50,710 bases of DNA, taken from the IMG/VR virus record IMGVR_UViG_2877285697_000009; one strand, 5' to 3'. The first letter of the stretch is position 1. The number at the start of each line of letters is the position of its first letter. A model generated the notes under the pieces. The model was not told where the DNA came from, did not search any database, and worked only from the letters and a program-made list of their open reading frames with translations. The position numbers were made by a program, and so were the translations under genes. Positions 27,527-28,481 of the stretch are shown here, in pieces. The DNA is from a virus (Duplodnaviria > Heunggongvirae > Uroviricota > Caudoviricetes).

Positions 27527-28000
27527 CTAGTTAATACACTGAGTGCGGATATATTCCTGCGCCCCTTCCAGTTGCTTCTGCATTGTCATCAACCGCTCTC
27601 TGAGGGTGAAATAATCCCGTTCAGCGGTGTCTGCCAGTCGGGGGCCGGTTGCATTATCCATTCCGGAGGTGCCGGTGGCTTCACGCACGGTACCGGAGCA
27701 GGTGGCGTTGATCCGCAGGCGCTTACGACCAGCGGCAACATCAGCACGCAGAGTTTCATTTTCAGCTCTCGCATCGGCTAATTCCCTTGAGTATCTGGCA
27801 TCAAGCGCAGCAACATCACGCTGGCGCTGCTGCATGTCAGTAATGGTTGCGTTTGCCAGCTCCAGCTCTCTGGCTTTTTTATCGCGCTGCGCTTTGTAGG
27901 TGATGGCGTTATCACGGTAATGGTCTGTTGCCAGCCACAGCGCACCACAGACCACCAGCAGAATAACGGTAAACGCGGAAAGCATTCGGTTTATGTTCAC
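27527..28000 (-). CDS. Rz: Spanin inner-membrane subunit Rz (i-spanin)
   Basis: N-terminal TMD, then [15 protein letters not shown]...[18 protein letters not shown]...MQKQLEG, near-identical to lambda Rz; probable GTG or internal ATG start. Confidence 0.9.
27589..27774 (-). CDS. Rz1: Spanin outer-membrane lipoprotein subunit Rz1 (o-spanin), embedded in Rz in the +1 frame
   Basis: [22 protein letters not shown]...[30 protein letters not shown] matches lambda Rz1 (lipobox, Pro-rich). Confidence 0.9.
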
Positions 28001-28131
28001 CCCAGCAGCCCCGACGAAGACAACATCATCCAGGCCATGGAAAGAAAAAGAGCAACCAGCATTAGTGAAAATGAAATGCCGACAATTACACAGAGGATCT
28101 TCGCCAGCGTTATGAGTTTGTCTGACATGCT
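27997..28131 (-). CDS. Hypothetical small membrane protein (43 aa), translationally coupled to Rz
   Basis: [43 protein letters not shown]; strong RBS AAGGGAGG 8 nt upstream; its stop overlaps the Rz start (GGGGTGA). Confidence 0.5.
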
Positions 28132-28142
28132 TAATCCTCCCT

Positions 28143-28325
28143 TCACGATTTCAACGCAATGACCAGTTTTGCCAGCCCATACAGCATCGGGGACACAGCA
28201 ACACCGACCGCCACCCACTTAATGGCAAAAGCCAGTGCTCTGCTGATGTCATCAGTTACAGGCGCTTTCAGTTCAAGGCCGTTTTTCATGGTCAACCTCA
28301 ACAGAATTCGTTTATACTTCGCCAT
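28143..28325 (-). CDS. Hypothetical small tail-anchored membrane protein (60 aa)
   Basis: [73 protein letters not shown] upstream; single C-terminal hydrophobic segment; immediately precedes the 43-aa ORF. Confidence 0.5.
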
Positions 28326-28481
28326 GTTCTCCCTTGCCTTACTCAAGGTCAGAAACACAAAACCCCGCTTGGTGCCAACAAACGGGGTTTTTACTTTTAT
28401 TCACTTACGTTTCGCCAGTTCGCAGGATTTCGTGTTATCCGTCCGCGTGCTCATGCCTTATTTTTCAGCAAAATATTCTGC

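Follow-up and report, generated by a model that had tools for sequence, protein, structure and literature searches.

The lysis region described here belongs to an E. coli prophage, a virus of the class Caudoviricetes (IMG/VR record IMGVR_UViG_2877285697_000009). The whole stretch of DNA analysed, 50,710 nucleotides (nt), is called the window, and positions are given in its own numbering unless another locus is named. Between the genes for the endolysin R (28482-29015; T4-lysozyme family, Pfam Phage_lysozyme 2.8e-24) and the inner-membrane spanin (i-spanin) Rz (27527-28000; Pfam Phage_lysis 7e-50) lie two small open reading frames (ORFs), ORF A and ORF B. ORF A (28143-28325) encodes 60 amino acids (aa), from an ATG at 28325-28323 to a TGA stop at 28145-28143, and has the Shine-Dalgarno (SD) sequence AAGGGAG at 28335-28329. 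ORF B (27997-28128) encodes 43 aa, from an ATG at 28128-28126 to a TGA stop at 27999-27997, with the SD sequence AAGGGAGG at 28143-28136. The interval from the stop of R to a GTG start of Rz is 481 nt and contains, in order, a terminator-like hairpin, ORF A and ORF B. All of these are on the minus strand, as are the neighbouring genes. The initial annotation of this DNA had described two small membrane-protein genes between R and Rz, and their positions, sizes, SD sites and the length of the interval were verified.

ORF A and ORF B as genes and proteins

Selection was measured on full-length, ungapped copies from related loci (108 for ORF A and 128 for ORF B). The ratio of nonsynonymous to synonymous polymorphism (pN/pS) is 0.13 for ORF A, with 4, 2 and 15 polymorphic sites at the three codon positions, and 0.43 for ORF B. 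For comparison, R gives 0.10 and the pinholin S 0.09, while out-of-frame readings give 0.6-2.1 for the two ORFs taken together and 0.9-2.1 for ORF A alone. No copy of either ORF has an internal stop. At least 80% of the 411-nt region covering both ORFs is present in 1036 of 5426 complete Escherichia coli genomes and some part of it in 2023 of them, at up to 8 sites each. The region is also carried by the plaque-forming phages PhiR5_2 and PhiR12_x. Together with the strong SD sites, these data uphold the initial view of the two ORFs: judged by their selection pattern and occurrence, they are real, conserved genes. Two other types of candidate were rejected: ORFs on the plus strand (one of 126 aa and others), for which the out-of-frame and antisense readings contain stops and give pN/pS near or above 1, and a 71-aa version of ORF A with a GTG start, since this start lies within the hairpin.

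Both proteins are labelled 'hypothetical protein' in the PGAP annotation. With profile hidden Markov models, ORF A gives full-length matches to phrog_1115 (2.6e-42), phrog_4493 (4.3e-30) and phrog_3246 (4.5e-19), and ORF B to phrog_4906 (2.1e-23). All of these carry the tag 'unknown function'. Pfam, NCBIfam and PADLOC yielded no family for ORF A, ORF B or the diverged ORF A homolog A2 (see below). At E <= 1, Pfam gave nothing for ORF A and only DUF3930 (E = 0.08) for ORF B. Sequence searches of the PDB with both proteins returned chance matches only, and no paper on either was found in the literature.

Each protein has a single hydrophobic stretch on the Kyte-Doolittle scale, in agreement with the one transmembrane domain (TMD) initially assigned to each. 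In ORF A it covers residues 38-56 (1.88) and leaves a C-terminal tail of 2-4 residues. AlphaFold2 models helices at residues 2-14 and 23-59, with a predicted local distance difference test score (pLDDT) of about 90 for residues 31-60. ORF A is predicted to be a tail-anchored membrane protein with a basic, cytoplasmic N-terminus (N-in). Members of the ORF A family share the pattern x-Y-K-R-x3-R-L-x-M-K-N-G-L-E-x-D-A-P, followed by a C-terminal helix ending in ALKS, RWW or ALK, and nucleotide conservation across the family is highest in the first 13 codons. Neither ORF A nor ORF B has the hallmarks of a spanin (a periplasmic domain or a lipobox).

ORF A also contains an in-frame internal start, Met13 (ATG 28289-28287, minus strand), which would give a 48-aa isoform. 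In the window it is preceded at 6 nt by GAGG (28299-28296). GAGG or GGAGG is found 6-9 nt ahead of this conserved methionine in 13 of 14 contexts of the family. The internal SD is kept despite a change in the residues that it encodes (LRLT versus VEAN), and it uses the rare codon AGG, while nearby synonymous sites drift. ORF A is therefore provided with two in-frame starts, Met1 (SD AAGGGAG) and Met13 (GAGG), each with its own ribosome-binding site. Because the SD of Met13 is so widely conserved and Met1 has its own, the gene is probably expressed as two isoforms, of 60 and 48 aa, which would differ by an N-terminal extension with a charge of +4.

The hydrophobic stretch of ORF B (residues 11-29; Kyte-Doolittle 2.89) is flanked by 10 residues at the N-terminus and 14 residues after it. 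On this profile, ORF B is a very hydrophobic single-pass membrane peptide, whose TMD takes in residues 11-29 and continues past them. It is not a lipoprotein: this possibility was rejected because its KILC sequence is not a lipobox. Relatives of ORF B are confined to phages and prophages of Escherichia and Shigella. Full-length homologs occur in 276 phage records, mostly those of phages converting for Shiga toxin (Stx) 1 or 2, and comparison with the Stx-phage homologs (65-79% identity) gives ratios of nonsynonymous to synonymous substitution rates (dN/dS) of 0.1-0.6. The homolog is located directly before Rz in the records inspected (24B, Min27, PA2, Stx1_JNE111036 and six loci of the census described below). 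In the inspected Stx-phage records it occupies the 153-nt gap between ant and Rz and is mostly unannotated. For example, an unannotated 44-aa homolog (MISDKLITL...) lies at 1601-1729 of locus L270 (Phi24B) and at 401-529 of L271 and L272 (Min27 and PA2). The N-terminal two thirds of ORF B are conserved. The C-terminal third exists in two allelic forms, both with the motif S-x-A-W-x2-L-x2-S-G-L-x-G. Co-variation between ORF B alleles and the alleles of the Rz transmembrane segment was inspected and is indistinguishable from linkage.

According to the initial annotation, the stop of ORF B overlaps the Rz start and the two genes are translationally coupled. The tight packing is confirmed. The overlap itself depends on which of two Rz starts is used. 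In other alleles the junction reads GGGGTGA-GGGGGAT-ATG-AAC-CGT, with the Rz ATG starting 8 nt past the ORF B stop. The window allele lacks the SD-like GGGGG and, when it is aligned with the other alleles, has ATA in place of the ancestral Rz ATG. One candidate is then the GTG at 28000, which overlaps the ORF B stop as GTGA and retains the N-terminal Asn-Arg (Arg5). The other is the ATG at 27985, 11 nt past the stop, which PGAP has chosen for the same allele. We lean towards GTG 28000 because it retains a basic residue before the membrane anchor of Rz. Translation of ORF B is probably coupled to that of Rz.

The leading hairpin and the ORF A family

The hairpin ahead of ORF A (28349-28395, minus strand) resembles an intrinsic terminator, with an A-tract, a GC stem and a U-tract, and is bidirectional in form. 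Its stem (28391->28359) has 13 pairs, 6 of them GC, and is followed by the U-rich run GTGTTTCT. The sense RNA of the region folds at -28.3 kcal/mol (z = -3.25). In related alleles the stem is retained and the loop is variable. A hairpin with the same A-tract/GC-stem/U-tract structure leads the ORF A family gene in all nine contexts examined (the window and eight other loci), seven of which were folded (-19 to -23 kcal/mol) and two read from the sequence. The stem sequences differ and the hairpins end roughly 20-70 nt before the first start. Thus, the hairpin after R, which the initial annotation had already noted, is part of the ORF A unit and not of R. The short distance to the start leaves little or no space for a sense promoter, and no minus-strand promoter was found in the region 27400-29800. 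An Rfam search of the same region at E <= 1 gave just a sub-threshold match of the hairpin to the rimP leader.

A second stem-loop (CCUUG-N7-CAAGG; 28324-28358, minus strand) is predicted by RNA folding. It pairs the 5' half of the Met1 SD and, among related alleles and in Salmonella, again retains its stem with a variable loop. In the loci with the A2 layout (L007, about 2560-2610, and others), an 8-codon mini-ORF, MGREVLSL*, starts at the position of the ORF A ATG. The TGA of this mini-ORF and the GTG start of A2 overlap, in a way that resembles upstream-ORF coupling.

A promoter scan also identified a hypothetical sigma-70-like promoter in the opposite direction (TGGTCA-18-TATACT; 28289-28318, plus strand), inside codons 3-13 of ORF A and directed towards the hairpin. 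This suggests a different kind of gene: ORF A could encode a toxic small membrane peptide silenced by a cis-antisense small RNA (sRNA) of about 70-80 nt covering its SD and start codon, in the style of P22 sar or a type I toxin-antitoxin system. Equivalent hexamers (TGGACA or TAGTCA, 18 nt, TATACT, with a perfect TATAAT in L265) are retained in most contexts of the family, being present in all members inspected except L177 and the second paralog of L093. Each hairpin is flanked by an A-tract and a U-tract, one to either side, and its short distance from the start is constant. The predicted 80-nt antisense RNA ends in a stable hairpin and U-run (z = -3.14). Conservation of the family is also highest in the 13 codons concerned. 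On the other hand, the promoter match occurs at the rate expected from shuffled sequences, and the hexamers overlie conserved residues (KYK, LTM) and the internal SD, features that account for their conservation just as well. One pair of the stem is, in most alleles, U-G in the sense RNA but a C-A mismatch in the antisense RNA. Rfam gave no match, the scan found no promoter from which an autonomous toxin mRNA could start, and L177 lacks the element. Since the promoter match is no better than in shuffled sequence and overlies these conserved features, an antisense RNA across the ORF A start is kept as a hypothetical element only, and we regard a silenced toxin as distinctly improbable. Published prophage sRNAs (EcOnc, Pas) map outside the R-Rz gap, upstream of the holin gene.

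The ORF A family is narrow. It forms 121 clusters at 90% identity, from E. coli, E. marmotae, Shigella and Salmonella, and an exhaustive profile search yielded just 22 representatives at 50% identity. Conservation at the protein level extends over E. coli, Salmonella, Yersinia and metagenomes. A scan of genome contigs with the family alignment confirmed no relative, the species-representative genomes apparently being without the gene.

In six lineages, with four types of endolysin (the PF00959 lysozyme of E. coli and Salmonella, a lysozyme related to R but differing in its N-terminus, GH108 and GH19-like), the gene directly follows that of the endolysin. In E. coli it comes after the PF00959 lysozyme. 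In the Salmonella locus L089 the order is HP1-type holin, PF00959 lysozyme, ORF A, Rz, and in L268 it is R-related lysozyme, ORF A relative, methylase, Rz. About 26 IMG/VR loci have a cassette of holin_8, holin_3_7, a GH108 endolysin, an A2-like gene and a 60-aa lipoprotein (phrog_7528), and in L265 (1562-2835) a GH19-like endolysin precedes an ORF A relative, whose stop is overlapped by the gene for a 56-aa lipoprotein. An Rz-like gene was detected in neither of these two kinds of cassette. In the GH108 cassettes L243 and L254 (about 40-1831), the lipoprotein begins at the stop of the ORF A relative. Their layout suggests that such endolysin/ORF A-like/56-60 aa lipoprotein cassettes may be a non-canonical module for disruption of the outer membrane. 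In a Yersinia enterocolitica prophage remnant, the stop after the terminal RWW of the ORF A relative is 1 nt from the Rz ATG. This remnant is fixed in the chromosomes L180-L183 (2959-3601). It begins inside the 5' end of the ORF A relative, reads RWW-TGA-T-ATG into Rz and has lost its endolysin. The protein itself was found in >1600 index blocks.

The R-Rz gap and the role of its contents

We carried out a census of the R-Rz gap in 75 IMG/VR loci anchored on R at >=94% identity. The initial annotation had treated ORF A and ORF B as one insert after R. Instead, the gap is a mosaic slot, always occupied in the prophage lineage of the window, and its layouts number at least seven. The layout ORF A plus ORF B, as in the window, is found in 21 loci, which answers the proposal made initially that conservation of the pair between R and Rz be examined. 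A further 22 loci contain ORF C (a homolog of D, phrog_6632), ORF B, a truncated ORF A and a truncated A2. Eighteen have a single 45-aa ORF, D, ending in RWW; six have A2, also ending in RWW; and six have ant and an ORF B homolog, the layout of Stx phages. The remaining two are single cases, one with ORF A and a 28-aa fragment of A2 and the other with ORF A, ORF B and a DNA methylase. The small single-pass membrane ORFs shuffled in the slot thus belong to three unrelated families (A/A2, C/D and B), and in every layout but that with the methylase a small single-TMD ORF abuts Rz.

The two genes are accessory to the S-R-Rz/Rz1 core, as had been supposed. In the Qin prophage of E. coli K-12, R abuts Rz without a small ORF, so that there is no K-12 gene name to borrow, and in P2 an Rz-like gene closely follows the endolysin gene; both cassettes lack ORF A and ORF B.

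A variable slot of this kind could contain mere recombination debris, or a leader, untranslated or translated to no other end than the delivery of ribosomes to Rz. Truncated copies (A' and A2') and a B-A' fusion do occur, ORF B has a frameshift allele and is under moderate constraint, and three unrelated families occupy the position before Rz, as if translation alone mattered. However, the pN/pS of ORF A is on a par with that of R and S, and its family is conserved as protein from E. coli and Salmonella to Yersinia and metagenomes. ORF B is maintained at full length in the 276 phage records with dN/dS < 1, and each gene has a strong SD of its own. We consider a non-functional nature of the two ORFs highly improbable.

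The slot is clearly able to accept cargo such as ant and the methylase. ORF A and ORF B might therefore be moron-type lysogenic-conversion genes, expressed from the resident prophage to the benefit of the host. They are intact in degraded prophages, including the Yersinia enterocolitica remnant, Salmonella loci without Rz and L007, in which Rz is frameshifted. Against this, no sense promoter was found and there is no space for one between hairpin and start, the terminator is located upstream rather than downstream, and the orientation always follows the late operon. We consider this explanation very improbable.

A further explanation accepts late expression and sees the proteins as membrane cargo with no part in lysis. 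They would act in superinfection exclusion or in protection of the membrane, preventing DNA entry or lysis from without by competing phages during maturation of the progeny, and would be distributed as portable cassettes able to insert at any junction of the late operon. This is a serious possibility, if a rather unlikely one. Relatives of ORF A have not only lysis genes as neighbours but also genes for tail fibres, tail, capsid and portal. They follow the tail fibres in L091, L093 (two tandem paralogs) and L176, lie between the major tail and chaperone genes in L267, near a Dit-like tail gene in L178 and before the portal gene in L177, and, in L179, follow the capsid gene together with other small membrane ORFs. 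Their orientation is always that of the late genes. Tandem paralogs occur in L093, L177 and L179, and one adjacent small ORF matches a membrane protein of the PHROG category 'moron, auxiliary metabolic gene and host takeover'. In addition, the slot is hypervariable among phages with near-identical R, and the ant and methylase genes that it can hold fit the same explanation. But in six independent lineages the gene lies exactly between the endolysin and Rz or lipoprotein genes, with abutting stop and start. Exclusion genes are usually expressed by the prophage, whereas for this gene the scan found no promoter and a terminator lies ahead of it. PADLOC has no match for ORF A, ORF B or A2. In the metagenomic phage L179, at 3001-3903, five consecutive small membrane ORFs follow the major capsid gene. 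They include an ORF A relative and a holin-like ORF whose C-terminus is basic, and the leading hairpin is present in two copies.

Our preferred, though tentative, interpretation is that ORF A and ORF B are late-expressed accessory membrane proteins which modulate lysis by the pinholin, SAR (signal-anchor-release) endolysin and spanins; on the sequence evidence we would not yet give it an even chance. It is suggested by the small single-TMD ORF abutting Rz in all layouts but one, by the enrichment of these genes beside endolysin and spanin genes, by the position of ORF A relatives directly after four types of endolysin and directly before Rz or a small lipoprotein gene in E. coli, Salmonella, Yersinia and metagenomic phages, and by the ORF B homologs next to Rz in Stx phages. 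Of the roles listed in the initial annotation (lysis timing, spanin regulation, toxin, exclusion), the genomic context favours a lysis-linked one and is compatible with exclusion-type cargo, since ORF A relatives are also found in tail and head modules.

Several results weigh against a function in lysis. Seven of 13 contexts of the ORF A family lie outside lysis cassettes, in structural modules. The slot also carries unrelated cargo (ant, DNA methylase) and truncated remnants of ORF A, and in three contexts (including L173) a frameshift allele of ORF B replaces its C-terminal half with a charged sequence, which implies that ORF B is sometimes inactivated. The cargo, the remnants and the frameshift together indicate that the contents of the slot are dispensable and partly decaying. 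The tight packing against Rz could merely reflect compaction in a hot spot. Searches with Pfam, NCBIfam and BLASTP revealed no sequence similarity of ORF A or ORF B to known holins, antiholins, releasins or LysA. Finally, the supplements of two papers on the translatome (ribosome profiling, Ribo-seq) of enterohaemorrhagic E. coli yielded no peptide from either ORF.

If a role in lysis is nevertheless assumed, the mechanism might operate as follows. Since the scan revealed no sense promoter and the terminator hairpin is immediately upstream, expression of ORF A and ORF B would require RNA polymerase that Q has modified and made resistant to terminators, and would take place only as this polymerase transcribes the lysis cassette, alongside S, R and Rz. 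ORF B would be translated just ahead of Rz. In the inner membrane the two proteins would contact the TMDs of the pinholin, the SAR domain of R or the anchor of Rz, and these contacts would advance or delay triggering and the action of the spanins. ORF A and ORF B would then be non-essential tuners of lysis timing, like P2 LysA, Mu gp25, LambdaSo Lcc6 and P1 LydC/LydD.

A more speculative extension, which we think improbable at present, is that the ORF A family constitutes an unrecognised class of portable lysis regulator, led by a terminator, tail-anchored, with Met1 and Met13 isoforms and possibly gated by an antisense RNA. Its members would be partners of the outer-membrane step: they abut Rz in E. 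coli, Salmonella and Yersinia or, in Rz-less GH108 and GH19-like cassettes, are joined stop to start to the gene of a lipoprotein of some 56-60 aa. In Stx phages, ORF B would provide Rz with a second small partner, one that is unannotated.

The timing of lysis determines burst size and, in Stx phages, also the release of Shiga toxin. More than a third of complete E. coli genomes contain prophages whose lysis cassette includes the small genes discussed here. Should the proteins turn out to be exclusion cargo, the R-Rz gap would be a hot spot of diversity to mine. The ORF A family, with its leading hairpin and dual start, presents a concrete regulatory puzzle.

Neighbouring genes and comparison with known systems

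The other genes of the cassette are also on the minus strand. S (29415-29630; Pfam Phage_holin_2_1 9e-33) is an S21-type pinholin with a dual start (MYQMEK...; 71/68 aa), whose 68-aa form is called 'class II holin' in the PGAP annotation of identical DNA. Between S and R is a gene of the YdfR/DUF1327 family (29066-29410; Pfam DUF1327 3.3e-43; 'YdfR family protein' in PGAP), a further uncharacterised resident of the cassette which was absent from the initial annotation. In R, residues 9-27 are Ala/Gly-rich and weakly hydrophobic (Kyte-Doolittle 1.74) and follow the basic sequence MNTKIKYG. By these sequence features R is of the SAR type. The gene for the outer-membrane spanin (o-spanin) lipoprotein Rz1 (27589-27774; Pfam Rz1 1.5e-19) is embedded in Rz. 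Just upstream of S there is another hairpin with a U-run (stem 29696-29669, in the region 29640-29760). It has no Rfam family above threshold. A 2026 preprint describes prophage Pas anti-sRNAs in a comparable position (esterase, PasA, holin, lysozyme).

Downstream of Rz, a 113-aa ORF (26608-26949, minus strand) combines a lipoprotein-like signal (LVMGC) with a TonB_C domain (1.4e-14). It lies roughly at the position of lambda bor, and a relative is called 'TonB family protein' by PGAP. Rfam and ARAGORN identified, also on the minus strand (33780-33985, 34061-34310 and 41432-41620), the sRNA STnc100, a tRNA cluster (Arg-tct, Arg-tcg, Met-cat) and a C4 antisense RNA beside isrK. These are typical RNA genes of lambdoid and Stx-like prophages.

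Existing annotations already include both ORFs as hypothetical proteins, and membrane proteins accessory to lysis cassettes are a known kind. An example of antisense control is the P22 sar RNA, which acts on ant, and type I toxin-antitoxin systems provide others. The geometry proposed above for ORF A is similar, with a promoter in the 5' coding region and an RNA that would end at the bidirectional upstream terminator and cover the ribosome-binding site. It differs in that ORF A has neither an Rfam family nor an autonomous toxin promoter. The dual starts of holin/antiholin pairs (lambda S107/S105, S21 71/68) give in-frame isoforms differing in N-terminal positive charge. This is the case for S in the window and is proposed for ORF A. 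In ORF A, however, the starts are 12 codons apart instead of 1-3, the single TMD is C-terminal and there is no charged C-terminal tail. Neither ORF A nor ORF B has a holin match in Pfam, PHROG or NCBIfam.

The P2 gene lysA, flanked by K and the Rz-like lysB, is non-essential and affects the timing of lysis (PMC3091744). It shares its position with ORF A and ORF B, as a membrane-protein gene between the endolysin and i-spanin genes, but LysA has 141 aa and four TMDs compared with one in each of our proteins. BLASTP aligns LysA with ORF A at E = 35 and gives no alignment with ORF B, and no hairpin-led unit or dual start has been described for lysA.

The holin-endolysin-spanin scheme is known to be incomplete for SAR-endolysin systems from the Mu releasin, LambdaSo Lcc6 and P1 LydC/LydD, and ORF A and ORF B are candidates for more such factors. 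The releasin of Mu, gp25, is a small membrane-tethered protein encoded near the SAR endolysin and needed for its release (PMC9239132). It shows that SAR systems use extra membrane factors. gp25 (DUF2730, PF10805) has 99 aa, an N-terminal TMD in N-out/C-in orientation and an acidic cytoplasmic domain, whereas the N-terminus of ORF A is basic and its TMD C-terminal. The TMD of ORF B is N-proximal but is followed by 14 residues only. Pfam detected no DUF2730 profile match in either protein. Mu, moreover, is without a holin, while the cassette of the window has a pinholin. In the Shewanella phage LambdaSo, Lcc6, a 65-aa single-TMD protein of unknown family, is strictly required at the holin step for lysis by a pinholin, SAR endolysin and Rz-Rz1 (10.1101/2024.01.23.576932). 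Compared by description only, its N-terminal TMD (residues 5-22) is like that of ORF B and unlike that of ORF A, and its gene differs in being far from the lysis cassette, next to xis. In P1, LydC and LydD provide an example in which several redundant holin-like proteins cooperate, in a host-dependent manner, with one SAR endolysin (PMC9025707).

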